Shown in pieces: positions 3,547 through 61,152 of a stretch of 64,000 nucleotides of DNA (its first letter is position 1; every line of letters begins with the position of its first letter). The notes beneath the pieces were generated by a model that worked only from the letters and a program-made list of their open reading frames with translations, was not told the DNA's origin and did no database searches. The stretch is from Phoronis australis (lineage: Eukaryota > Animalia > Phoronida): positions 70,759-134,758 of the forward strand of contig NMRA01000378.1 in assembly GCA_002633005.1 (NCBI GenBank). Reading direction: 5' to 3'. Both the position numbers and the translations under genes were made by a program.

Positions 3547-6267
3547 TAAAAAATCACACCATGATGAGTGTACCACATATCCATGCCCGCAGGAACACCT
3601 GGCGATGGCCGGAGAATAGACAGACCGAAACGTCGTGACTGTGGAAGTAGTCAAGAGGTCGGTGTGATAGTGGCATGATATACAAAGAATTTTCCGCTAA
3701 GGGAGACTCCGACAAGCTCCCATTTTCGATTGGATTCAACATGTCTCTGCACTCATCAGAGGTCATTTTCGTTATTTTTGCATCTGCCTCCCTATCCTAC
3801 AAAGTGTGTTCCTATTGAGATGGTCACGACTGGCCTAGGTTTTCTGATGGGCCACGCCTCTATACTAGCTTCCCGAGTGCCTTTTTTGCCTGTGCCGCAA
3901 GATCTACCAACTTCTTTACATTTTTAAGATTTGGTGTATGCGCTCCAACTGAGGAGAGCATGCTCAGAATTAAATTCGGGACATGTCTGACTACTGTGGC
4001 ATCCTCTGGTGGCATTTTATGGTTTTCATGTGGTTCTACACCTACCAGCTTTATTCAAGCATGAAATTTGGTAATTAGATGTCACAGAAACGGCAGCGAA
4101 AGCCTTGCTGTGCCCGCTAGTGTTATTTTTATTTTATAATTATTGGGGACAAATAAAACAACAAGAATAATAAATATTTTAAGTTGTATTGGGAATTTCA
4201 GGGTCACAGCTCTACAAATAAATATTTCACAGAAGGAACCAGACGTGTTCCTTAATTACAAGAGATAACACACACATTTCCAATACCCAAAGTGTAATTG
4301 AGTATCGGATACTAAGTGGTACAGGTTAGCATAGTACCAAATGGGTACATAATACTAAATGGGTATTGGCCGATTGCTTACCGAGGGTCGAGCAAAGCGG
4401 CAAATTCAATAACGATGTACCAAGTGGGTACAAACTGCCAAATGGGCAAATATCATATAAAGTACCAAGTGGGTGCACCAAACAGCCAACTGGGCTATAA
4501 CAACCTGCAAAGCAGGTTCCGGACAAGTTGAGTGAGCAGACCAGCCGGAGTGATAAAGAGATTTTGTAAGGAACGTGGTGCTGTGGCTCAGTATGTGCCA
4601 CATGGGCAGGGTTGTTCATGGATGAACAATCCTGTCCACCGTTGAACACCCCAAGTTAAAAACATACCGGTAGTTGTGCAGACACGGGTGCATTTTATGG
4701 CTCTGCGTTGCTTTTGCTTTTACATGACAAAAAACTGTAAGGTGATGTGATGAGATGGTTTCTTTTTTACTTCTTTTGATCACAATTTCGCACATTTGTT
4801 ACCCCGAGATTCCACTCTGTCAATCACTTTTAAGTTTGTGAACTAATTTGTCCTGTTCAAACCTTGACTGATCACAGCCAAAGGCAAAGGCTGCTGGTTA
4901 CAAAATTCCTATGAAATAATAACTGTACAAACATATCTTTTTGTGTGTTCCAAGTCTGAGTTTCCATTGATATTAAAAGATAAGACACGTAACTTCACCA
5001 TGATATTCTTCCTGATACCTCACTCAAAATAATTGAGTTTCTTGTAGGCTGTCTGAATTCCAGATTTTGAAAAGGTCAATAGCAATGACAGTGCTTTAAG
5101 CGTATTTTAATAACTGGTATAAAAGTCATCGACCTTGTTGCAGTGAATGGCTGGCAGACAAAGGAAGTTCTGTCGATTGGTAATAAAAACAGCAAAAACA
5201 CAATAGACTTCGTTGAATTATAGCCAAGTCAATCCCCGCTAACGTTATCAAATAAGCCGTTTCGGCCGTAAACACCATAATGTCCCCAATGAATAACATT
5301 AAGCGTAGATGCATAAACTGTCACTTTAAATCATTGAGGGTCTCATAATTTGATGTGCTCACACATGATGGCGTTTCTTCACGGGAGTCGCAATATCTTT
5401 CACCAGCAAATATAATTTTTGGGACGAAACCTGTAAAAGTTCAGCTTCTTTATGATTTGAATTCATATAGAAGTCTGGGATATTCTCATGCATGACGTAC
5501 ATGTACATGTCATCGACAAATCTTTGTATTTAGCCAAAAATTTACCAAGTTGTAGACTTGAAATGAGTAAAACTTTACACATTTCGAAAAGAGGAAGCAT
5601 GGAAATTTTGGTTTTTTAAATTTATTTCAATCTGTCGTAAATTAGGTCACGTGTCTTTATCAAAATGTAACAAAAAGAAAGGAATGTCGTAGCAAAATTG
5701 TATTCAGTAACAGGAAGGAATGTCAAAAACCCTGCCAAAGTTTTTTTATCTCCAAAAGTGGATCACACACGGTTTGGCAAACAACATGCATGTAGACGCA
5801 ATTTTAGATGCGTCTGAACGAAACTCTTTATACGTGTAGGTACTGTTTCTGCAACTACACCAAACTAACGAAAGTAGGCAGCGTATTAGACGTCTTCGGT
5901 GTAACTACATGATAGCGACTCCAAGGAGGTCACCACCATGAGTCGCCAACTAATATCGGGAATGATTATGTGGCAAGTTGACTGTCGTTTGACTGGTTTC
6001 ATGGCAGTAGGACTCTGCTAAGTGCCTCTGAACTTCTGTCAGTTTGTACCAGAAACCTGTGAATTAGGTACTTCGTAAGAACATGTACTTTCCCCTAGCA
6101 ACTACTGTAGGTTCCGCGCCTTCCAGTGGTACTCTACGTTTAAAATTGAATGCCACCCGATTTACTTAGTTTTTTACCGTTTTAATCGGTATACATGTAT
6201 ATCCACATCACTTCGTATACAGTCGATCTCACCTCGTCGAAAGATGTCGCGTTAACCTGTAAGGAAG

Positions 6268-6540
6268 GTGAGTACACGAAGCAGCGACGTCAGTGGTTCT
6301 TACTGTAAGCCATGTGTGTGCGGACATGGTGTGGCGTATTGTTCCCGCTTGTGTGAACCACTGATGAAGCAGTGTGGAAAGCGGGTATATCGCTTTTTTC
6401 GATTTCCTCGAGAACCCGAAATGCTTTGGAAGTGGTTCCCAGCAGTAAAGAACGAAAAGTTCGCCATTAATACCAAGTATGAGACCGTGAAATACATGTT
6501 TCTCCTTATCTATGGCCGGGACTATCCTGTTTCAAAATGA
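6268..6540 (+). pseudogene. Degenerate THAP zinc-finger fragment, probably a transposon relic
   Basis: AYCSRLC...YRFFRFPREPEMLWKWFPAVKNEKF resembles the THAP C-x-x-C...FxFP...W...AV core. The CSxHF end is not intact. Confidence 0.55.
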
Positions 6541-10227: not shown

Positions 10228-11528
10228 TCAACCACATTGATCCGTTGACGCTCTATCTACAGCAGTGCACTCTAGCCCAACGTCAAAAAATGCCAGAGCA
10301 ACGTCTTTTTCAGAATATCGCTGAGATTTTGCCGCGTCCAACACGCCACAGACAGCCTTTGCCATCCCCGTACATCTCTTCCACGACATGACATTAGCCA
10401 GCCAAAACACTACGTATGCTCTCTTAACACCCCACCCCGTTTTAGTAGCCAATTTGTAAAAGGCTCTGTTAAAAATTCCAGAAGTGTAGTGGATATCTAC
10501 GGAATCTGAATAATCCCGGAAGTGGGATTTCGATTTGCCGTCGATTCCTGGCGTGTCGAAATAACGCAATGCATCCAAAACGCCACCTTTCTTTATCGAC
10601 CGAGCGACTTTCCAGTCAACTTTTCCGTTTAAGTAAAATTCCAATGCTTCTCCCGAGATATCTGCGAAAGATTCCGAAATTGCACCAGATTGTAACCGAT
10701 TTTGTAAGCGAGAAGTTTCCAATATAAATGCGTGTGCCATTTCGTGACCAACGACGTTTTCATCAGTCATAGGATGGAAAACTGTGTGGCCGTCCCCCAG
10801 GAAAACAGACTTTGAAGGAGGGTCGTAACGTGCAATGTCAAGCTTGTCGCCAAAATGAACCCTAATGGTCATTGGGGGGCTCAGCACAACTCCTCTTTCA
10901 AACCACGCCTGGAACATTTCAAACATTTTTGTCCCATGGTAATGGGCGTCGTTGATTGGTGACCTACCACCATTTATTGCGTCCGTGCTGCCTGTAGCGC
11001 ACGAATACGTGTGCGGCAAGATGTTGCTCGTCTCCGACGTGAACTTGTTGTGGACGAGGACTACTTTCGAATTCGACATGACGCACTGTAACGCTTGGCC
11101 CTCTGACACGTCTAGGAAACCTTTGTGCTGCCCAAAATAATACTCCCCAATCTTGTCATTGCCCCCTATTCCTATTGCGTTTAATCTCAAACCACTTTCT
11201 CTCCACAGGCTAAGGACAGTACTTGTCTCTGCGTCAACCCAAACGGTATACAAGAAAGTATCAACAATCACCCTACGTTCCCTAATAATCCCACAAATCT
11301 GAATTTCGTAATATTGCCGAACAACCGAGTCATTGCGCACATCTATCGATAACTTGAAGTCAGTCACTTTCCTCACATAAGGTCGCCGTAGACCCATCGT
11401 CAGCAGATTTACCACAGCATGTTTAGCGGCTTTTTTGGCCTTGTGACGCGGTGGTAATTCAGATTTTGGCCTGAGATGCTGGATGCCTACGAACAAGGTA
11501 CCGTACACGTTGTCTGTTAAAATTTGTC
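10228..11528 (-). CDS. M4 peptidase exon 5 (end of FTP, PepSY and the complete mature catalytic domain)
   Basis: Acceptor tttcag|GA at 11529-11530. Motifs present: PepSY-like VWVDAETSTVL, GIGGNDKIGEYYFG (LasB mature start GPGGNQKIGKYTYG), SPINDAHY, HEMAH (10732-10746), GAISESFAD, LRYF, DIHYTSGIFNRAFY and GWGVKRAY. Stop TGA at 10228-10230. Confidence 0.95.
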
Positions 11529-14500
11529 CTGAAACATAAATGTTCATATGACTCAAAATAATTTCGCAAAATCCTTTGTTTCTATGTACCAAACTAAAAA
11601 AGTATCGTAAGTGTAGATGTAAAGCTCGAAAAGTAGAATTCAGATTCTAAAAGATAGCTTTAATACTGTGGTCAAAAAAGCACACTAGATTTTAGAAAGT
11701 CATCCACTGATCCACACCAACCATAACACACAGAACAAAATTTTGTATTGAATTAGAACACAAATGACAAAAACTATTCGATAGAGTACACAGATTAGAC
11801 TTCAGGCTTTACATACGATTTGCTACTGTGCGAATAAATCTACACTGAAATGGTGCCCTATAGTCGCTGCAGTAACAGTTCTGCACATTTCAAAATAATA
11901 TTATTACTTTGAAACTGTATGGCTCAATAAACAGGTCTATACTACAATAGAGGTGTATATGTATTTCTCATCAATCAGGACCTTACTGGAACTGTGAAAC
12001 TATGTAAGTCAACAAATAGGACTGAATTTTTGAAGTGAAACAAACGGGGTTTTACTTGGACAATACAACCGTACTGTAGGACTCAGCAAACAGAACATTA
12101 GTTGGACAGTGCTTGGGAAGCTGTTTGTTACAAACAGGACTTTACTTGGAGAGTGAAACCGAATGTCTCAACAAACATCTCGCAAGAAATTAAATGTAAC
12201 TTGTTAAATGCATTTATCGTCATTATTTTGACATTTGTCTCTTTAGTTTGATACTAACCCTTAGGGTTTATTTTGCATTACTCATCTCTATTTATAGCCT
12301 CAAGGGCCTACTTTTGTATTCATACAAGTCTCTACGCGACACCTGATTGGTCGCCCATATTTCCTTTGTTCAGTTCAGCCTGGTCTCTCTCATTCAGCCA
12401 CCTACCTTGTCGTCTACAAGACCTACGTTCGTTCTCTGCGTTTTTCCCCCACCCCCCATACCGGGTGTCGGTTCCACTTTCTCTTTTCTCCTAAACATTT
12501 CCTGTTAGGTTTTTTCAATTTTTGTGTTCATGTTCTGTACTTTTCCTTTACGCCCTTCAGGCAGTTCTTTTGTTTTGGTTCCCTCTTTCAGGGCTATTCA
12601 TTGTACACGCCGGTGGGTGTTTTGTCCATGCCCATCTTGCAGAGTCTTAGTTAGTTTTATCTATTTACGTCATAATAAATGACATTATTCNTGACTCACA
12701 ATAGAAGCCTGATAAGAGTGAAGGTGGATAAATGCGGTGTTCCTACAGTTTCTTGTTTTAGTGGATGTGTTCACGACATGTCCATGCCCATCTTGCAGAG
12801 TCTTAGTTAGTTTTATCTATTTACGTCATAATAAATAACATTATTCGCAATCCTCCTCTGGTTTTACTCTGCAACATAGCTCGTGGCTTACCCCGGGCAA
12901 AATAGATTACGATAAATAAGACTTTACTAATTGGGCAGTAAAACTGCATGTGCCAACAAACGTTTCTTTAGAAACGAGACCTTACTTGGACAGTGAAACT
13001 GTATCTCGTAATCTTCACACCTCTTCCTTTTTTTCTGGTCCTTATTCAAGCAAACAATGCCATCGACCGGGCTACATTTTATGGCCAGTAGATTTGGAGG
13101 AATCCCGGTGTCAGCGGTGAATTCGCAACATTTTTTCCCCTTAACACGACACACAGCGTAATCTGGCGTACCTCCATTACAAACGTTGATGCCACTTCGC
13201 TGAAATGATGCAATTGTTGCATACATGAAGAAACTATAGCATTGTTATTTTGCTGGTTCTAACTTGAGGCAAATGAAGTAAAATGTGACTGCTAGTTACA
13301 GCTAAATGAGTGCATATTATAGGGAAGAACTTGTAGCCCCCAGACACAATATATAGTCATTAAATAAAATCGCCACGTTTCAAGATTTCAATTGATTAAA
13401 TAAAGGCGAACTTCATTTCTATTTGTTAATACATGTAAGTCAATTCAGAAAATAATCGAGATCACCGGAACTTTAGCACAGAGAATACTTTTGAAGGATG
13501 ATTCTCTTGACTGCCTAAAAGGCTCGCACAAGACAGTGGATTGTACACCATTGATAGTTCTAAGAGAAACTATCTTTGTTTAGGCAATAGTCAGTCAAGA
13601 GTAGAAATGATTCCATGACAGAAATGCACTGTCCAACCACGGTTGTCGTTACGACGCCAAAGCCGGCAAAGTCCGTCAAACGAAATTGACGTAAGTAGGT
13701 AGACTGTAACATACAGTGGGTACCTCGAGAGTAACCACTGAGCTTGTTTTAACCCTCTTGAAGAAAAGTTTGTATTGGTCAGAATAAGAATAGATTTCAA
13801 CGGAAACGTGTAAACAGGAAATATAACAAGAAACTTTGGAAACTGTAGGCCTCTTCTTGCATGGGGTGAATCGTCCGAGTACCGTGATAACAATTATCTA
13901 ATTTCCTCAACGGGCCAACTCTCTCTGAATGATATAAAAATATACTATTTGTGGAAATAAATCGGAGACATCTTACTTGCATATCTGGTATTCTTTCAAA
14001 GTCTCCAAATCCATCTGGTGTATCTATACTCGTGAAGTTGGTCCAGTAGCCTACGTGGGAAGAAAATCAGGTTATAATCCATAGTCAGTCCCGAGTAAAA
14101 TACCTGCGTCACAACCTCGTTACGAGAGCTGAAAATGCGACCAAGGTTGTCAAAATAAAGTTCACTTATTATGACAGAACAAAAACACAATAAATGTTTG
14201 TGAAACTAAGATAAAATCAGTAAAATATAATAATGTCTGGTAAGATCAGCAATAAAAAACCCACACAGAGTTACAAGGTTGTGACAAAAGTGACGTGAGG
14301 TAGTGGGCAATCGAGTAACACTGAAATGTTTAGACACGTGCGTCTGTGTAGCTGACACAAGACAATAGAACTGAAACATGTAAAAGCAAACAAAAGACAT
14401 GTTACAGAATTGAGGAAAAAGGGGGTACAAGGGAAAGGAACTCATATGTTCATATCAATCTATTGAAAAAGGGAAATAATATATGTTGCACTTGCGCTGT

Positions 14501-15596
14501 ACATTAATGCACGTACAGGAAATTCTCTGTCGTTCCAAATGGTTTGATGGTCGCTTACGGAAACGGAAATACATCTTCCAATACACTGATCAGGGAAAAT
14601 ACTTACAAATTATTTTCATTTTAATATCTTATTTCTGTACATACAACAACATTCACCAATTGGTCACCGTAATTTTATGTACCGTTGTCATAACAATTGT
14701 GACGTTTCACAATTTCCCAACGTGTACATGTACCTTTTCGCATTGACACGAATATTGAAGCGTCCTCCACTCTCGTGTCTAGGTAGTATTGGTGAGCTCG
14801 GCACCACGTCTGATTATTCAGGACTATGTCCTCGCTAAGCTTCACTGTGTTGTTCAGTCCAAGGTCGAAGTAGTCGTTAGGATCGGGCGACACAACATTC
14901 TTCTTTATGAGTGACGCCGCACTGCGACTGCGGGCGGGGATATGGTATTTCAAGGCCCTCGCAGGCAACCCACCTGCAACATGACCACTAATTTAAATAG
15001 AGTGTGTTTTCATTCGACCGTATGCACTGCAGGGACAACTTTTGCTTGTTCAAAAAGCAAAAATGCGCACGTAAAACTGCCAAGCGATGTAACATCACTC
15101 CGCGTGTTCAGCTTAATTGCATAACAGGGAGCCAATACATAAATGAAATCAAACAGGTGCTTACTGTTTATTGTTTCTTTATTTTTTGTGTCGAGTACTT
15201 GTAAACGTTCAAATTGGGATTGAGATTTACTCATGCTCTAACATTCCTGTTTAGTAAACGCTCTTTTGCGGCAAACCCACCAACGCATCATCAGCACAGC
15301 TGAGAACGTTAGGGGTTCAGTGATACAATACATACCAATGAACTAAGTTGCTTTGTTACCCCCACTTCTATGCTCTTTATCAAACCTCCATTCACACCAG
15401 TGAGTGAATACAAGAACCAGTAAACTGAACACACGAGTTCACTGAACTGTTTCTACTTCGGAAAGGTAGCCGTCGATGCTCCACGGCAAGCTCTAGCTGG
15501 TGCAACGGCGTCTCATTGTGCACAGTATTTCTTCTTTGCAAATATCTTCGCCTACTTACACGTTAACAAAATGTATACGCAGACTGCACGCGCCAT
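10228..15596 (-). CDS. Secreted M4-family (thermolysin/pseudolysin/vibriolysin-like) zinc metallopeptidase preproprotein with an inserted Mucin2_WxxW domain; join(15560-15596,14734-14973,13977-14050,12986-13199,10228-11528), 1866 nt, 621 aa
   Basis: All four introns have GT..AG ends, and the phases (1,1,0,1) join into one open frame. Domain order: signal peptide, FTP, WxxW, rest of FTP plus PepSY, M4 catalytic and M4_C. Confidence 0.85.
12986..13199 (-). CDS. M4 peptidase exon 4 (Mucin2_WxxW C-terminal half)
   Basis: Acceptor tttcag|CGA in phase 0, matching exon 3; donor CCA A|GTAAGG in phase 1. CSPVDGIVCLNKDQ...CEDYEIQFHCP is the G-x-x-C-x-N-x-D-Q...C-x-D-Y-E-[IV]-x-F-x-C motif. Confidence 0.85.
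13977..14050 (-). CDS. M4 peptidase exon 3 (Mucin2_WxxW N-terminal half: GYWTNFTSIDTPDGFGDFERIPDMQ)
   Basis: Acceptor cacgtag|GC, donor CAA|GTAAGA. Matches the W-T-x-[WF]-x-x-x-D-x-P-x-G-x-G-D-x-E signature. The ORF track missed this exon. Confidence 0.8.
14734..14973 (-). CDS. M4 peptidase exon 2 (propeptide, FTP-like N-terminal part)
   Basis: Acceptor ttgcag|GT, donor AAAG|GTACAT, 240 nt, phase 1-1. WCRAHQYYLDTRVEDASIFV resembles the FTP R-x-x-Q-x-Y-x-G-x-x-V pattern. Confidence 0.8.
15560..15596 (-). CDS. M4 peptidase exon 1 (start and signal peptide MARAVCVYILLT-C)
   Basis: ATG GCG CGT GCA GTC TGC GTA TAC ATT TTG TTA ACG T|GTAAGT, a perfect donor in phase 1. Joined to exon 2 it gives MARAVCVYILLTCGLPARA-LKY, a hydrophobic core with an A-X-A cleavage motif. 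Confidence 0.7.
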
Positions 15597-38529: not shown

Positions 38530-41500
38530 GGGGCTATTCGGAAAATCTGCAACAACTAGAGGGCGTGCGTGTACTAGTGGTGATAGATTAACAGCCTCGA
38601 TTTCGCGAGCCCTTTAAATACATGGTGAAATGGCTTGCAGCCGTGCCAATTGAATCTGAGATTGCGTAAAAAGGGTGCTTCTATGAGGGAAGTAAGCACG
38701 ACCTCATACAAAGGTAAGGTTTGTGATCATTTTAACGATTATTCCATGATTATTCTACCGATGCCTGTTCACTGAGGCACTCGCCGATGTCGACTTCGCG
38801 GCAGTCAGTCGCCAGCCAGAGTCTGGTTAATCTTTGTATGTTGCGATATGTGATACGATACTGGACGTAGCAATCGGGATCTTTTCGTACATCAAAGCAT
38901 TATTATTGCTTGGAATGATTTCTATAAGTTTATCAGTGGCAGTTACATCAATCAATGCTGCATATTTATGCTGTCAACTCGATACAGGTTAAATTTGAGT
39001 TAAGGTTACAATCCAATCCCAATGGCAAAGGGTACGTGAGTGATAAATATCCATTGCATTAGACTATTTGTTTACTCCCTATCATATGTCTTCTGGAAAT
39101 CTATTACACGTTGAAATGGAAATCTATCACGTCAGTTTTCACGTAACCTTTGGCTTTTTAGGTTTGAAGGCTTGTACCGTGCAGAGGAGATATGCATCGC
39201 TTCTGCACCGTCCCTGAATGGACAAATATTGGTTTTTAGCATTTGACTGCAGCTAACCAACAAGATCTTCCCATCCAGTGCAGATCTGTTGTCAAAGCCT
39301 ACTTTCAATATTGGAGACAACGAACAAAGCCTTTGAAAAGGAACAGCTATTTTTAAAGTCACTTTGTTAAATTACTTATTCAGGTCCCGAGGGTGGATTG
39401 GCAAGTGGTGGGTTGTAATATTTGGTACAACTGAATGTGTGGAAATAACAGGTAATACATGTTTGGGGAAAAGAGCATGGTGAGGTAATTCTTAACCTTC
39501 ACGAAGTCCCTCCTAGTTGATTTCATGAAACTGTTTTGGTACTTGTATCAATTGTAAAACCACAAGAATATATTACATTTTCCGAATTTACAGTGACTGA
39601 ATAGTCTTAACTCATGCCTTGAAATGTTGCAAGTCGTTATACATGTACATTCAAATGACTGCCGTTTTTGTGAAAATTGCATTTTTGATGGTGCCTTACG
39701 ATTTGTAATAACTCTTAAACAACAGAAAGATTATCCATCATTTTTAAATGACCCAAGTCTTCATATCTTCTATTAGAAAGAAAACGGTTCCCTCAACCTT
39801 AGGCTAGAAGTATGCTTGACAGACCCATGAACCTGTAATCTGAGTTAAAAATTGCTGAAAGTATCAAAATTAAAAAGGCTTGAAAGGTTTGAAGTTGTCT
39901 CAAAAAACTTGTATATTTTACAGACAAGTGATGCGTTTAAATAATTGTTATGGCTAGGGATAAAAAATAAAGACAGTTTTATGCAATACTCATTATATAC
40001 ACCCTTGGTTTCTGAAAATAGTAACTATTTACTTGTATGTGAAACTGTAGACCAATCACCATGTATTTTTGAAAAACAGGGATAATATTTTTGATCCAAT
40101 CTGGAGTACTTAATTATTCATATTTCAATATTTGTTCCAGGTTCAGTGACATTTTAAGGCCACTTCAAGCTGTATCATAGACAAGCTTTGTTACTCTGTT
40201 CTCTTCCCACAGCACTTCCACACACCAGCAGTGCTGCATGGCACAATGTGCAAGTCAGTGGCCCTGGAGAAATGTGAATCGCAGTACTAAGTTACCNNNN
40301 NNNNNNNNNNNNNNNNNNNNNNNNNNNNNNNNNNNNNNNNNNNNNNNNNNNNNNNNNNNNNNNNNNNNNNNNNNNNNNNNNNNNNNNNNNNNNNNNNNNN
40401 NNNNNNNNNNNNNNNNNNNNNNNNNNNNNNNNNNNNNNNNNNNNNNNNNNNNNNNNNNNNNNNNNNNNNNNNNNNNNNNNNNNNNNNNNNNNNNNNNNNN
40501 NNNNNNNNNNNNNNNNNNNNNNNNNNNNNNNNNNNNNNNNNNNNNNNNNNNNNNNNNNNNNNNNNNNNNNNNNNNNNNNNNNNNNNNNNNNNNNNNNNNN
40601 NNNNNNNNNNNNNNNNNNNNNNNNNNNNNNNNNNNNNNNNNNNNNNNNNNNNNNNNNNNNNNNNNNNNNNNNNNNNNNNNNNNNNNNNNNNNNNNNNNNN
40701 NNNNNNNNNNNNNNNNNNNNNNNNNNNNNNNNNNNNNNNNNNNNNNNNNNNNNNNNNNNNNNNNNNNNNNNNNNNNNNNNNNNNNNNNNNNNNNNNNNNN
40801 NNNNNNNNNNNNNNNNNNNNNNNNNNNNNNNNNNNNNNNNNNNNNNTTTTTTCCAATGCAATGTTACGACATTTACTGAATTAAGGCTTATTCATGTTAA
40901 TTGATAACTGAGCTGGTGGTCCTGGGGGTGGGGTCCACGATAAAATAAGGAAACTCACTCATCTAGAGAATTTTATTGGAAACAGCATAGTTTTGAAGAG
41001 AAACTGCTGTGATAAAGTCACTCTTGACTTCTGTGCATCACGTACCATACACCTCTTATTTTGGGAGCACCCCACCCAGGACAACATGAATATGTGCTGC
41101 TAGCCTACCCGGCATCGGGTGAGTTTCCGAAAAGAAACACTTAGTTCCACTCAATAAAACTTTTATTCAGTGGGGTAACTGGTGGGGATAACATCACCGA
41201 ACGATGTTGATAGAAACAAATTGCTAAAAACTTACCAAGTAATGTTGTGTAGTCTCCGAATGGAACTGCATAGTCATAGAGCACACACGGGGCTTCAGCA
41301 TCCACACACTTTTTGTCAGTTAGTTGACCCCGTTGACCGCAATTGTCCACGAATATAGTAACCTTAGGTCTTTTTGGGAATTTGTGGCCACCTGTCGAAG
41401 ACTTGCACCAGGGAAATTAGCAGTAATAAAGCTTAGCGCGACGACGTATTTTGATAAAAATTCCATCTTTTAGCAGTAATGTTGTTTACATGCAGACGGC

Positions 41501-44500: not shown

Positions 44501-47500
44501 AGCCGTTCCCTATTTAGAATTCCTTCCCCTTTGTAGTTGTTACCCTTAGGATTAGTCGCCATGACAGGTAAAGCGATATAATGTCTGATTACTTTTGTCT
44601 GATACTGTACTGGATTTTCATAAAATTTGACACACAGAATACTTATGGCGATTACACTTTTTCTTTTTCCTATGAAGTCTAAGTAATATGCCCCCCTAGT
44701 AGTGTTCCATCTGCAACACCGCTGAAAGGATCATTTCAAAACTTTACAGGTATGTTGTTGTTTGCATGAAGAAGATTGATGTTGATTGTTAACTGGTCTA
44801 TCTTCTGTGGTGCCTGCCATATAGCAATTTACATGTAGCTTTCTTAATGTATCCTTCTATATCGACCAAGCTCCATGATGCATTTTCATGATGCATGTAC
44901 ATGACAAATAGTTTTCTGTTAACGGAGACACCGACAAACTCCTATTTTCGAATGGATTCAACATGTTCTACACCCACTACAGACTGAGGTCCTTTTCATT
45001 ATTTTTGTCACCTGCCTCTCTGTCATCCAAAGCCATGAGTTCCTATTGAGATGATCAAGGCTCTTTAGCTTCCCGAGTGGCTTCTTTTGCCTGTGCCGTA
45101 ATATATACCAACTTCTTTAATGGACATTTGTAAGATTTGGTGTATATGTAGCCTACATGTATGCGTTCCAACTCACAGTGAGGAGAGTATGCTCAGAATT
45201 AATTTCTGGACGTGTCAGATTACTGTGGCATCCTTTGGTGGCAATTTAGGATTTTCATATGGTTATACATCTACCAAATTTCTTCATGCATGAAATTTGG
45301 CAAACAGATGTCAAGGAAACCGAACGGCAGCGATTGCCTTGTTTAAGATGGATGAGATGTATGCTGCGCCCCCTAGTGTTATTTATATCTTATAATTAAC
45401 GATACTTAAACGAACACCACAAGCTAGAAACACTGTTAGTGGTGCAGTCATAGGTGCATTTTATACGATGCTTGTACACGATGCCAAGAAACTTATGTGA
45501 TGAGATGGTTTCATTATATTTCTTTTGATCACCATTTCGCACACTTGTTGCCCCGAGATTCCACTCTTGTCAATTAATTTAAAGGTGGACCAGTGGTGAA
45601 CTAATTTGTCTTGTTCATATCTTGAGTTCAGGCAAAGGCTGCTGGTTACATTTCTATGGAATAAAAACTGAGGAGATGTCTTCGAGTGTATTGCAACTCA
45701 GTTTCCATAAATATATACTCAGTGTAATGATACATGTAAGACACGTAACTTCACCACGCTACTCTTCCGGAAACCTCACTCAAAATAATCGAGCTTCTTG
45801 TAGGCAGTGTGGATTCCAAATTTTGTAAAAGGTCAATAGCAGTAACAGTGGTGCTCAATTGTGGACAATTTTGGACTCAGATTCTTTTACAACAAAGCAG
45901 CTACAATTATTTTTTGGAAACCCGGCCAATGGGGCGTCTTGCACAGGCTAACAAGCCCGCAAGAAAGAAAATATTTTGGGGAAACTAGAACCAATTNACA
46001 GATGTCAAGGAAACCGAACTCAGTGTAATGATACATGTAAGACACGTAACTTCACCACGCTACTCTTCCGGAAACCTCACTCAAAATAATCGAGCTTCTT
46101 GTAGGCAGTGTGGATTCCAAATTTTGTAAAAGGTCAATAGCAGTAACAGTGGTGCTCAATTGTGGACAATTTTGGACTCAGATTCTTTTACAACAAAGCA
46201 GCTACAATTATTTTTTGGAAACCCGGCCAATGGGGCGTCTTGCACAGGCTAACAAGCCCGCAAGAAAGAAAATATTTTGGGGAAACTAGAACCAATTCGA
46301 ATTTAATCCCACGCGCTTGCCAATGCACTCCCTGTCGCAAACAGAGAATTGACCAACACAAATGAGGTTACGCCAAGAATACTTGGCTCCCGACCCCTCT
46401 GTTTCCTTAGACTCTGAATATATTCGGAAAATACAAATCTCAAATGTGGATTTCCACGATTGTTTTAAGAAAAATGAGGCAGTCGCTAATACGAAGTTGC
46501 GCGACGGAACAGCACCAGAGACAAAATAACGTGTGAAAGATGACACGAACACTGAATCGGAAACTTGAATAGAATAATGTGACCCACAAGCCCCCCCCCC
46601 ACACTCACCAATAGATTACAGACCTTGTGAAGAAATTAACTTGTATGCACGTCTCTTAAACCAATCCCCGCAATACACCATGTTCTCCACACTCTGCTAC
46701 CATTCAAGTGTTCTGAGAATTGGTAAAGGATTTTCGTATCCCAAATGGCATTCGCAAATTTTTAAGTCAATTTCGTTTATTCACCCCACACAAAAATGTA
46801 AAAATAAAAAATCAAAGGCAAAGTAGATACAAAAACTTTAATGTCAAAAATCCTAAATGCAACCAAAACGCCGAAACGCAGCGCGGTTGTCGCTCAGACG
46901 AGTGAGCTGTTAACATCATTGTCCAAAATGGAGTAGCTCTCGTGCAGTGCACATGTATATGAAAACCTCACGGCCGCAACTAGCCTACCTACACGTTCGC
47001 CGACCCATTAGTTCTACACCAGTGCAGCGCCCTGTAATGGTCGTCTGTTCTGCACCGGCAATGCACTCGAGCAGACTAATAAAACCGCAAAACATTGTGA
47101 TGGATGAAACGCAAGATTCTACACATTTGGCCACTCAGATTACCCTTGATGTATGTCTGCAGGACCACTATTTGGTTTCGGTTAGCGTCATGTGTCATAA
47201 TTCAAGGATCCCGTTAAGATGACACCCTAAGACACGAATCTGTTCTCTTCAGTTAAATCACTTGCAGAACACCGTTCCATGGACAAAATTGTTTTGTGAA
47301 CTGTCTATAAATTAACTGAACAAGCCACCCCCCCTTGAACAGGTAATTGGGCACTTTTTCTTTCCGTACACTTGTGAATGTCAGTTTGTGTGTTTAAAAC
47401 CGCTCACTCAGTTGCAAACAAGTTTAACAGTCCCATTAGCCAAAACTGACCAGTGGGTAGCAGTGCTTGGTCAAGGATAGCTGCCAAATAAATAGCAAGA

Positions 47501-47861
47501 TGCAGCAGCGCTTCAAGCCAACTCATTCTCAATAAGCAATGATGGTTCTATTCAAGCAATGCTCCAGCCAACGAGTGCTACGTCACTCAATCATGCAAAC
47601 TGGGAATGAGCAAGGAAATACAAACAAAGTTAAATGTTATAATTTTCTTGTCATGGCCAATGTATATACATAAAAAATCTCAAGAACCGAATCCGCATGT
47701 GAAGTCGTGCACAACAGAGGTTGGTATCAAAAGTTGAAGTGTGCTAGGCGATCAAGGTACATGATAGAATAAACTGTACACGAACGTCAACAAAGCACAC
47801 CAAGGCGGACAACAATGGTGGACGAGGGAAGAGCATTCACTGACGTCTGTCCTGCATACAT

Positions 47862-47890
47862 CTACTTGGACGTCATCATCTTGACAAACT
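47862..47890 (-). CDS. CaM: Calmodulin alternative terminal exon 5b (EFVKMMTSK*)
   Basis: gtctgttgcag|AG TTT GTC AAG ATG ATG ACG TCC AAG TAG; same phase and length as exon 5a. Confidence 0.85.
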
Positions 47891-50570
47891 CTGCAACAGA
47901 CAACAACTAATGCTGTATCTAAGTCAGTCTAGCCAACAAACTACACTAAGCACATACATATACAACTGGCAAAGCAATAGGAGCTGGTAGTCACTATAAA
48001 TTTGCACTGGGTGATGATTGGGAGACATGTTGACATTGTGAGCTGTAAGAATTATCACAGCATTTCTGCACCTCAACGACGACTCATACACGACCAGTCA
48101 CAATTGATCGGTTATAGTAGCCTGTTTACTTTGTGTTCATCCTACATCTGGGGAGCAGCAAGTATGACATCAGGTGAACCATTAATACATAAGTGAAGTC
48201 CAAACTGACAAGCTAATAATCACTTGTACATTCACTCAGGCCTCACAACCACAAGCAGGACAAGGACAAAAAGCATAGTTGGTTCTCAAGGTCATTCCAT
48301 TGTCTACCAGGTCCACTTTGTCCACAGTAATTTGGATAGAGTTAGACCTACCCCAGGTTCTATGTCCAGCCCCTTCACCTAACCAGTTTTTGCAGAGGAC
48401 CATAGAACTAGCGTGCAAAGGACCAGGGTATAAACCAATTGGTTCTAGTGTTCTTTCATTTATTTATTTTTTTAACGATTACTACCCTTTGATGACGTGA
48501 AGTGCCAGAATGAGGCGCAGGTTTCCAAATAAGCCCGATTGTTGTAACCAGAAATCAAATATGTGACCCACCACCACAAAATGAGTCTTAAGTCGGGATT
48601 TGTCATTTTTAATTGTTATTTTTTTCTGAAAACGCAGTGTTTTCTGATCATTTTGAGGTATAAAACATGTCCTTATCTTCACAAATGACCGAGTTATTGC
48701 CAATTCTATTCGGGGAAAGCGAAAATTTAGAGCTTTCAAAAGTCAAGGAAAATGGCCGACGAAAAGTGCCGACAGTGTCTTTAAAATTTCCATAGCAATC
48801 TGCAGTTGAATGCTACATTNAGACTTTTTGTGAGATTTCACAGCGAGTAGGGCATGGACAGCCTGTGTACGGGTATCAGTGCAGGAGAACACACATTTAC
48901 TTTGAACACTCATCACACCACGATCATTCTCTAAGCCGATCTACAAGAACAGAATCTCCAACAACAATGTATTGAGCAATAAACGGTTTGAAGTCTCACA
49001 CAGCGCTTAGCTGGACAAGCCAAATTTGAAAACTTCCAAGTTAGCTGCCGTGAATCATAGTGCTGAAGTGGTCAATGGATACCATCAGTCCATGTTATGA
49101 AGTGCGATTTGGAATGCATTGGCCTCTACACACATAAGTAGCGAAGTGTCACCCCCTCCCTCCCCCTTCCCCCTAACATTCTCTTTCAACCATCTCGATT
49201 TATTTCTGAGGCATGGCTTAAGTTTCAGCAATAAGTCAGTTAGTCAACAGCTACACAACGTCCCTACAATTGCCAGGTCTACGAACTGCAATCAAATCGC
49301 TAGGTGCACACAGGTTTTAATTTGTGGTATTAAACAACCAAAACCAGGGAGGTCGCTCCAAAACATGAACTGAAACACACAGGTATTCTCAGATAGCGCT
49401 GTATGAGACTTGTCAAAATATCAATCTAATATGGTATCCCATAAAACATCTGGATGGATCAGGTAGAACACTGTAAAACAAGACAAGGCTATGCCTATAG
49501 TCGCAATGTAATGAGAATTAACACCAGCCCCAGAAGCAGCCAAAGCAAGTAGTTGTTAGACGACCTTGGGAACATGCAGCGATAAATCTCTTGTCAACTA
49601 AATGACATGTCAGATATGTGAACCCCAATCCATTGATTTTGGGATGAATATCGGCCCCATTCCCCTCTGAAAAATACCAAAAAATCACGCGAAATTCTCC
49701 TCACGAGACCCAAAAATTCACCTCAAGGTTTAACTCCTTGTAACTCAAGCAGTCGACAATTTGAAACAACAGCACAACATGTTATGTTTTGGCTACTAGA
49801 AGAATAAGCCTTTGACGGCTAACGAAACAGGTGGGGTAGAATTTTCCCTTGCCCAAAAAAGTTCCACTCTCAGAAGAAGGCGCAGGCACTTTTCTCCTTA
49901 GGAGGAACGAAGGCCAAACGCTTTTGGTTCATACTGAACAGGTATGAACTTCTTGTAAACAATTATAAACCAATCAGGATGGTCACCAGACAAATTTCCA
50001 TGTCAAAAATGTATGTCACAGATTTTTCAAGAACTCTCCAAACTGGTTCGTGTCTAACTCAAGATGACATACTTGACTGAAAAAACGCCCACACGCACAC
50101 ACAGTCACGCAGACACAGACACGCATGCTCACTCAAATTATTTCAAGAATATCAACATCAATAAGCAACAGTCTGTGTTGGAAATAAGCGTGTGCCAGTA
50201 AAACAAGCTCAGCGTAGCATGCGTGTATGAAAAAAAGCATGACCTGTAAAACAAGCAAATGAAGGTGGAAACCTGCAAAAAGGGTAAGCCATTTCAGCAA
50301 CAATAAAAACGACATTAAGACTAAATTAGGCAGCGGTAAAATAAGCAGCGTTCAGGCATCATCTAAACCTAGAAAGCCATTAAAAATAAAATAAACAATG
50401 TATGCTCCAGGCGAGGAATCCTTTTTGTGTATTCTCCAAAACATTTACAAACAAACTGCCCCAAGACACCCAAGAGTAGAAAACGCACAAATGAAGGAAG
50501 TCTCATAATTAACATGATGGGGAATTAGTCCTTTTTCACAAAAACAAGAGAAGTCTTTCATTGCTGTCTT

Positions 50571-60529
<9,959 letters not shown>

Positions 60530-61152
60530 GACGATTGAATCTGTGAATCCAAGCTCCGCGGCACGGTACCCTAACCTGTGATGACTAACTGTCAAATGTA
60601 CTAAGCCAAGATTGACCTGTAAATATTGACCGTCGTGAATAATCCCAATTCTTACGCGGTTTGAATTACTCGCTGAAACGTTTCTTGTTTCATAGATTTC
60701 CTCTATAAACTGTTATATAGCGTCTTTACAGCCATAAGTAAGCATGTGTGAGTCTTAAACAAGAAATAACTAACGGAATATGGTTGATGGCAAAGAATTA
60801 TTTCTTATCGAATGGATACTGACAAACAAAATGTTGTCTTCTGCGCCGCCGAACAGTACGACGAGCACGGATGTATTATCAAATGTGATTGGACAACCAG
60901 CCTCTGCAATGCACCATCATTTCACTGCAGTGACTTCATAATGCTGTCAAAGTATAGGGTTATTAATTCCCATATCGACTTAGGTTTTATCTCATTTTGG
61001 CTAGTGTATCAGTGGGAATACAAACGTAGAAGTTAACTTTACATTGATTGGGTAATTTTGTAAAATGGTTTGTCGGAAATGAGATTTTCTGAGTTCCCGA
61101 TCCGCTGGCATTCCTAGGTATCGCTCCGGCGGCCGGGGGATATTGGCACTCC

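Follow-up and report, generated by a model that had tools for sequence, protein, structure and literature searches.

Does a single calmodulin gene of Phoronis australis yield two different calmodulins, by splicing one common upstream part to either of two duplicated last exons? Animal calmodulin is a textbook invariant protein, whose diversity arises only through extra genes or untranslated regions (UTRs), and sequence forms made by splicing would break this picture. The question was raised by an initial annotation of a 64,000-nucleotide stretch of contig NMRA01000378.1 (positions 70,759 to 134,758), hereafter the window, to which all coordinates refer unless another locus is named.

Layout of the calmodulin gene

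The window carries on its minus strand a canonical calmodulin gene of five exons and four introns, in which the 29-nt last exon exists in two alternative versions:

60527..60558, minus strand: exon 1, 3' part; holds the last bases of the 5' UTR and, at 60529-60527, the ATG, with a GT donor next to it
56936..56966, minus strand: exon 2, 31 nt; joints on both sides
53407..53550, minus strand: exon 3, 144 nt; codes for EF-hand 1 and the beginning of EF-hand 2; joint given below
50952..51194, minus strand: exon 4, 243 nt, common to both isoforms; donor 50952 used with both last exons
50571..50599, minus strand: exon 5a, proximal, FVTMMTSK, Thr143, stop TGA, minor form; joint 50599/50952
50401..50570, minus strand: short 3' UTR of 5a, 170 nt; poly(A) tail evident from one X1 contig, whose loose end at 50401 is a poly(T) run of 24 letters
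47891..50400, minus strand: stretch between the last exons, intron for the distal form; contains the assembly-gap N at 48820
47862..47890, minus strand: exon 5b, distal, FVKMMTSK, Lys143, stop TAG, major form; joint 47890/50952
46780..47861, minus strand: 3' UTR of 5b, mostly ending near 47650 after about 210 nt; a minor, longer form extends to about 46790

RNA from four runs carrying the same species label was placed on positions 46100-51300 at 90% likeness. Three of them (X2, X3 and X4) are raw RNA runs of one study, with sample types not given, of each of which about 18-19% was read; the fourth (X1) is a contig set of a second study, considered as RNA by guess. All four introns of the gene were backed by RNA joints, and the first coding exon contributes the ATG only, as in the invertebrate five-exon type. 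The joint 56965/60526, present in 4/4 runs (X1 depth 4291; 29, 24 and 28 reads), sets the end of exon 1 at 60527, and the joint 51193/53406 was carried by 1387, 1099 and 1525 reads of the three raw RNA runs. Joining exons 1-4 by script to either last exon gave predicted products of 149 codons with four EF-hands and more than 90% identity to human calmodulin, the sole difference between them being residue 143 (144 when Met1 is counted). It is to be noted that intron 3 (51400-53300) is full of diverged repeat copies with an RNA coverage of 800-2300-fold, mostly on one strand; since this coverage stems from low-identity reads, the repeat family appears to be abundant in transcripts of other loci.

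Sequence and divergence of the two last exons

The two homologous last exons lie in tandem on the same strand behind one donor. Re-reading of the sequence bore out the description in the initial annotation of two 29-nt exons, each preceded by a pyrimidine-rich TTGCAG acceptor and fitting the phase of exon 4, as well as its account of their differences: 6 of the 29 bases are changed, through the Thr/Lys replacement (ACG/AAG), the silent pairs ACT/ACG, TCA/TCC and AAA/AAG, and the stop codons TGA/TAG. A degenerate pattern of the exon matched the window twice, at 5a and 5b only, and matched in 0 of 100 shuffles. Apart from 5a and 5b themselves, no remnant of a calmodulin exon was found between positions 40900 and 50940. 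The 2.7-kb spacing reported between the exons holds for the sequence as assembled, whereas the true distance exceeds 2.7 kb owing to the N at 48820.

The flanks of the exons, said to be unrelated, indeed gave alignment scores at the level of shuffled sequence (z 1.4 on the upstream and 0.4 on the downstream side). Within the exons, silent changes numbered 3 in about 4.3 sites and replacements 1 in about 19.7 (pS 0.69, pN 0.05), a silent excess with a Fisher p of 0.008 over 8 codons only. Because the flanks cannot be aligned while the changes in the exons are mostly silent, these comparisons support the proposal that 5a and 5b derive from an old tandem duplication, both copies apparently having been kept by purifying selection.

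Both last exons are joined to exon 4 in RNA

The initial annotation had named an absence of reads spliced to 47890 as the observation that would speak against its proposal. Reads joining 50952 to 47890 and 50952 to 50599 were found in 4/4 runs. In X2, X3 and X4, respectively, the joint of exon 4 to 5b was carried by 615, 515 and 609 reads from 93-98 start places, with short-side overlaps of up to 75 letters, and the joint to 5a, which removes a 352-nt intron, by 111, 95 and 255 reads. Contigs of X1 also carry both joints, at depths of 4410 for 5b and 1609 for 5a. Read on the minus strand, both introns are of the GT-AG type, and the first mates of these reads all map to one strand. One locus thus gives two mRNAs with different 3' UTRs, as had been proposed.

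The Lys form (5b) is the major one in each of the three raw runs, with distal shares of 0.85, 0.84 and 0.70 (X2, X3 and X4), i.e. 70-85%. The X4 ratio differs from that of X2 (p 1.6e-11, an overstated value, as reads were taken as independent), and X2 and X3 agree. This shift between samples could reflect regulation by tissue or condition, or alleles. A few reads run backward, from 51007 to 47864 (3, 2 and 0 reads) and from 51011 to 50952 (5, 8 and 7 reads), and these joints are probably artefacts of template switching or of alignment between the EF-hand repeats. A homologue search with exon 4, restricted to longer proteins, yielded for the most part fused or multi-domain proteins, none of them annotated as an isoform of the locus, and looking up the exact 149-residue Thr form gave no record.

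Each last exon comes with a separate stop codon and 3' end: TGA and a poly(A) site at 50401 in one contig for 5a, TAG and a coverage end at about 47650 for 5b. In a signal scan, the poly(A) site of 5a was preceded by a variant signal only (AATACA at 50433). For 5b, coverage collapses near 47650 (depth about 600 before, about 35 after), and many molecules begin at 47647-47655; its long form is seen as a depth of 10-40 continuing to about 46970, an X1 contig at 46789-47501 and an AATAAA at 46781. Between the last exons (47891..50400), the same-strand depth of about 1-51 was mostly above the 0.4-7.5 measured in the intron upstream of 5a (50624-50797), some bins being repeats covered on both strands; it was highest in X4, the run with the highest use of 5a. 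This excess over the intron and its peak in X4 suggest a long read-through UTR, and the stretch likely serves as such for part of the 5a mRNAs.

A single set of exons 1-4 feeds both last exons

We then considered whether each isoform could have its own upstream exons. Instead of separate exons 1-4, introns and 5' UTRs, one upstream set was found in the DNA as assembled and in RNA. A single 460-nt contig, unbranched and of constant depth, spans exons 1-4 including the 5' UTR and has 0 differing letters and 0 gaps in the listed pieces, which cover exons 3 and 4. It stops past the 9 letters common to 5a and 5b, and the contigs of both last exons overlap its end. Since one difference-free contig forks to both last exons, a hidden second gene is unlikely. 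None of the variants listed (40 of 223 and 40 of 1971) falls in exons 2-4. The depth of the shared X1 contig (4291) is below the sum of its branches (6019), a shortfall that may arise because its depth is averaged along a contig extending to the 5' end.

The single N at 48820 is flanked on both sides by unmatched read ends, no joint among those listed bridges it, and it conceals missing sequence. The Ns that stand alone at 12691 and 45997 may be of a similar kind. As an alternative to its own proposal, the initial annotation had offered that 5b is a leftover of a separate calmodulin gene or the result of a mis-join at this N; the gap is real, and the leftover is disfavored by the shared contig.

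Last exons of calmodulin genes at other loci

Metagenome contigs were scanned for a Lys143 last exon, which gave 15 loci with approximately 12 distinct sequences, L004 and L014 being near-identical, as are L002, L003 and L015. The first of these (L004, and likewise L014) holds a whole calmodulin gene in which exons 2 and 3 are fused, and therefore represents a different lineage. At positions 6364-8950 of L004, its DNA shows behind a single exon 4 three clear candidate last exons in tandem, coding for FVSMMMSK, FVKMMTSK and FVKMMTSG, together with a doubtful fourth candidate with a longer coding tail. The flanks of these last exons are mutually unrelated, and no other calmodulin exon lies between them. 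A receptor gene neighboring this locus points no further than to a protostome-type FMRFamide-receptor-like family.

At L007 (338-1102), two last exons 597 nt apart have near-identical flanks (z 8.7 and 18.3) and differ by one replacement (Thr146/Met146), the upstream exons lying off the contig. Judged from these flanks, L007 is a recent tandem duplication of about 600 nt and likely represents the birth stage of such a cassette. In L005, two last exons are present because whole genes stand in tandem, and the other 11 of the 15 loci have one last exon, in 1.2-3.6 kb of sequence. A Thr143 exon, and hence the Thr/Lys pair, occurred in 0 of the 15 loci, which had been found with a pattern demanding Lys. 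The 3' flanks of the window exons showed no similarity to L004, L006, L008-L011 and L013 (20 comparisons, highest z 2.5), and pattern scans of prokaryote genomes and viral contigs gave 0 matches, as expected.

Tentatively, several invertebrate lineages might run their main calmodulin gene as a cassette, in which helix H (141-148, around Met144/Met145) is exchanged together with the 3' UTR through a choice among two to four last exons in tandem, so as to provide tissue-specific calmodulins with different target preferences; on present data we would sooner bet against this generalization than for it. If true, it would be the splicing counterpart, within one gene, of the calmodulin gene families of plants and mollusks, and the small size of the exon, 29 nt, would account for such a system having been overlooked.

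Occurrence and possible role of residue 143

The predicted Thr form is identical over 149 residues to the solved calmodulin chain PDB 8zlw_N, and P0119 and P0120 each contain it in full. Human-type chains carry Gln143, and the Thr form aligns to them with 3 differences. Among the calmodulin-like tails fetched, a set biased toward long or fused proteins of plants, fungi, protists and animals, position 143 was Lys in 23, Arg in 7, Thr in 5, Gln in 3 and Ser in 1. Thr was found in P0051, P0093, P0121 and 8zlw_N, and Lys in P0114 and the 15 outside loci. On these sequences, Lys143 is widespread in eukaryotes and Thr143 occurs in insects and a mollusk, and the mRNAs of the present gene are predicted to code for both. 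As both are ordinary calmodulin residues in other animals, the exchange may be near neutral.

The accessible part of one structural study describes Gln143 as touching the target in some solved complexes, though not in Kv7.4 segment B or apo NaV1.5 (PMC3904923). Excerpts of two further papers place residue 143 among those shifted on peptide binding (PMC4703387) and describe a simulation in which a target lysine is bonded to Gln143 (PMC9599780). Since residue 143 contacts the target in some complexes, Lys143 is predicted to be likely to alter some contacts with basic target helices.

Proposed working of the gene and alternative explanations

We propose, with a probability of roughly 0.86, that one gene splices a shared exon 4 to either of two duplicated last exons, producing a major Lys143 and a minor Thr143 mRNA, each with its own 3' UTR and a predicted protein, and that this switch likely tunes both target binding by the C-lobe and control of the mRNA by tissue or condition. 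The donor of exon 4 would choose between two acceptors, one close by (352-nt intron) and one distant (more than 3061 nt), in a race in which the closer acceptor is tied to a weak poly(A) signal. The weak signal of 5a likely lets most transcripts continue and splice to 5b, and the Thr form would become more frequent in any cells that strengthen the site at 5a. The choice would be exclusive automatically, because each exon brings a stop codon and its own 3' end. Replacing Thr by Lys would place an extra positive charge on helix H beside Met144/Met145 and would change the affinity for some basic target helices.

Two explanations deny the switch itself. Two tandem calmodulin genes could have been collapsed in the assembly, with near-identical exons 1-4 belonging to 5b hidden in the gap at 48820. 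Indeed this gap is real and unbridged, and whole calmodulin genes do occur in tandem, as in L005 and, in the part of the abalone study available, as four genes (PMC6171432). We nevertheless regard such a collapse as very improbable: a single difference-free contig with exons 1-4 and the 5' UTR feeds both last exons, there is no second exon-4 contig of similar depth, and a copy so old that its last-exon flanks can no longer be aligned would not retain identical silent sites and UTR, as UTR and intron variants are common in the species. The minor 5a could alternatively be a relic that enters mRNA through leaky splicing and whose protein is not needed, in line with its 15-30% of joint reads and its variant poly(A) signal. 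This share is, however, well above splicing noise for an abundant mRNA, and 5a has retained an intact frame, stop and acceptor despite fully diverged flanks; furthermore, its predicted product is the solved invertebrate-type calmodulin 8zlw_N, and its use doubles in one sample. That 5a is such a relic thus seems to us a marginal prospect, on a par with the collapsed genes.

The main rival accepts that the switch is real and differs from our preferred reading solely in its purpose: the switch would be kept for the two 3' UTRs (stability, localization, translation), residue 143 would be functionally indifferent, and both exons would be conserved merely because each must complete a working calmodulin. 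It is a serious contender, which we place somewhat short of even odds, and selection on the UTRs is compatible with tuning by the residue. The coding difference amounts to one residue whose two states are both seen in other animals, the 3' UTRs are unrelated and have several 3' ends, and our literature search yielded no paper on a substitution at 143. Against an indifferent residue, contacts of residue 143 with targets in some structures (PMC3904923, seen in part) can be cited. Calmodulin is, moreover, nearly intolerant of change, the protein of exons 3 and 4 being identical in L004 and differing at 0-2 of 80 residues in five other loci, whereas the tails of L004 and L007 also vary, at positions 143, 146 and 148.

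Comparison with known systems

In vertebrates, three genes (CALM1-3) encode one protein with Gln143, and their UTRs are subject to alternative polyadenylation. The present gene resembles them in having several mRNAs with different 3' UTRs, whereas CALM1-3 have a single last coding exon and yield an identical protein from all mRNAs; either form described here differs from that protein at 3 of 149 residues (by alignment for the Thr form). The solved chain 8zlw_N corresponds to the Thr143 form, whereas the major form here is Lys143.

According to the portion available of a study of calmodulin genes (PMC6171432), the layout of the Phoronis gene equals that of the abalone and sea squirt genes, vertebrate calmodulin genes having one intron more. 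The isoforms described there come from separate genes, splicing having been weighed and rejected by the authors. Both systems share the five-exon/four-intron layout, the ATG-only exon 1, near-identical proteins and, as far as that portion goes, different UTRs and tissue patterns; they differ in that one gene with shared exons 1-4 is at work here. Tandem duplicated, mutually exclusive terminal exons are known from the Drosophila genes pip and PGRP-LC (PMC9013439, accessible in part). Like these, the present gene has homologous tandem last exons, one per mRNA, each with its own 3' UTR; from what that source gives, pip and PGRP-LC diversify variable enzyme or receptor domains, whereas here 29 nt change one residue of a highly conserved protein.

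Our literature search, outside whose scope most subscription papers fell, brought up neither a calmodulin gene with a choice of last coding exons nor a comparison of Thr143 with Lys143. The device is thus known, and its use in calmodulin was not found described. The locus may offer a natural test, within the same cell, of whether the few variable positions of calmodulin, 143 included, matter for the choice of targets. Additionally, cDNAs that differ in their 3' UTRs and have been taken as evidence of two calmodulin genes may in some cases stem from a single gene, and 29-nt last exons are easily missed by annotation.

Other features of the window

At 6256-6537 on the plus strand, a weak match to a THAP domain (E 0.002, below the curated cut-off) is possibly a transposon remnant. 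A 472-codon frame at 10228-11646 on the minus strand matches zinc peptidases of the M4 (thermolysin/vibriolysin) type with a Pfam E of 1.5e-25, and the upstream pieces at about 12985-13200, 13977-14050 and 14735-15000 comprise a Mucin2_WxxW exon and, as judged by eye, further exons. A search for relatives with the WxxW exon found nothing. The named relatives of the peptidase, from 10 of 150 matches looked up, are nearly all bacterial (29-45% identity), the only animal ones being two proteins of Lingula anatina, with 44% identity over 247 residues for the Lingula relative, which hints weakly at a lophotrochozoan. From these matches, the peptidase is a candidate for an old transfer from a bacterium to an animal that may since have gained introns and an animal domain.
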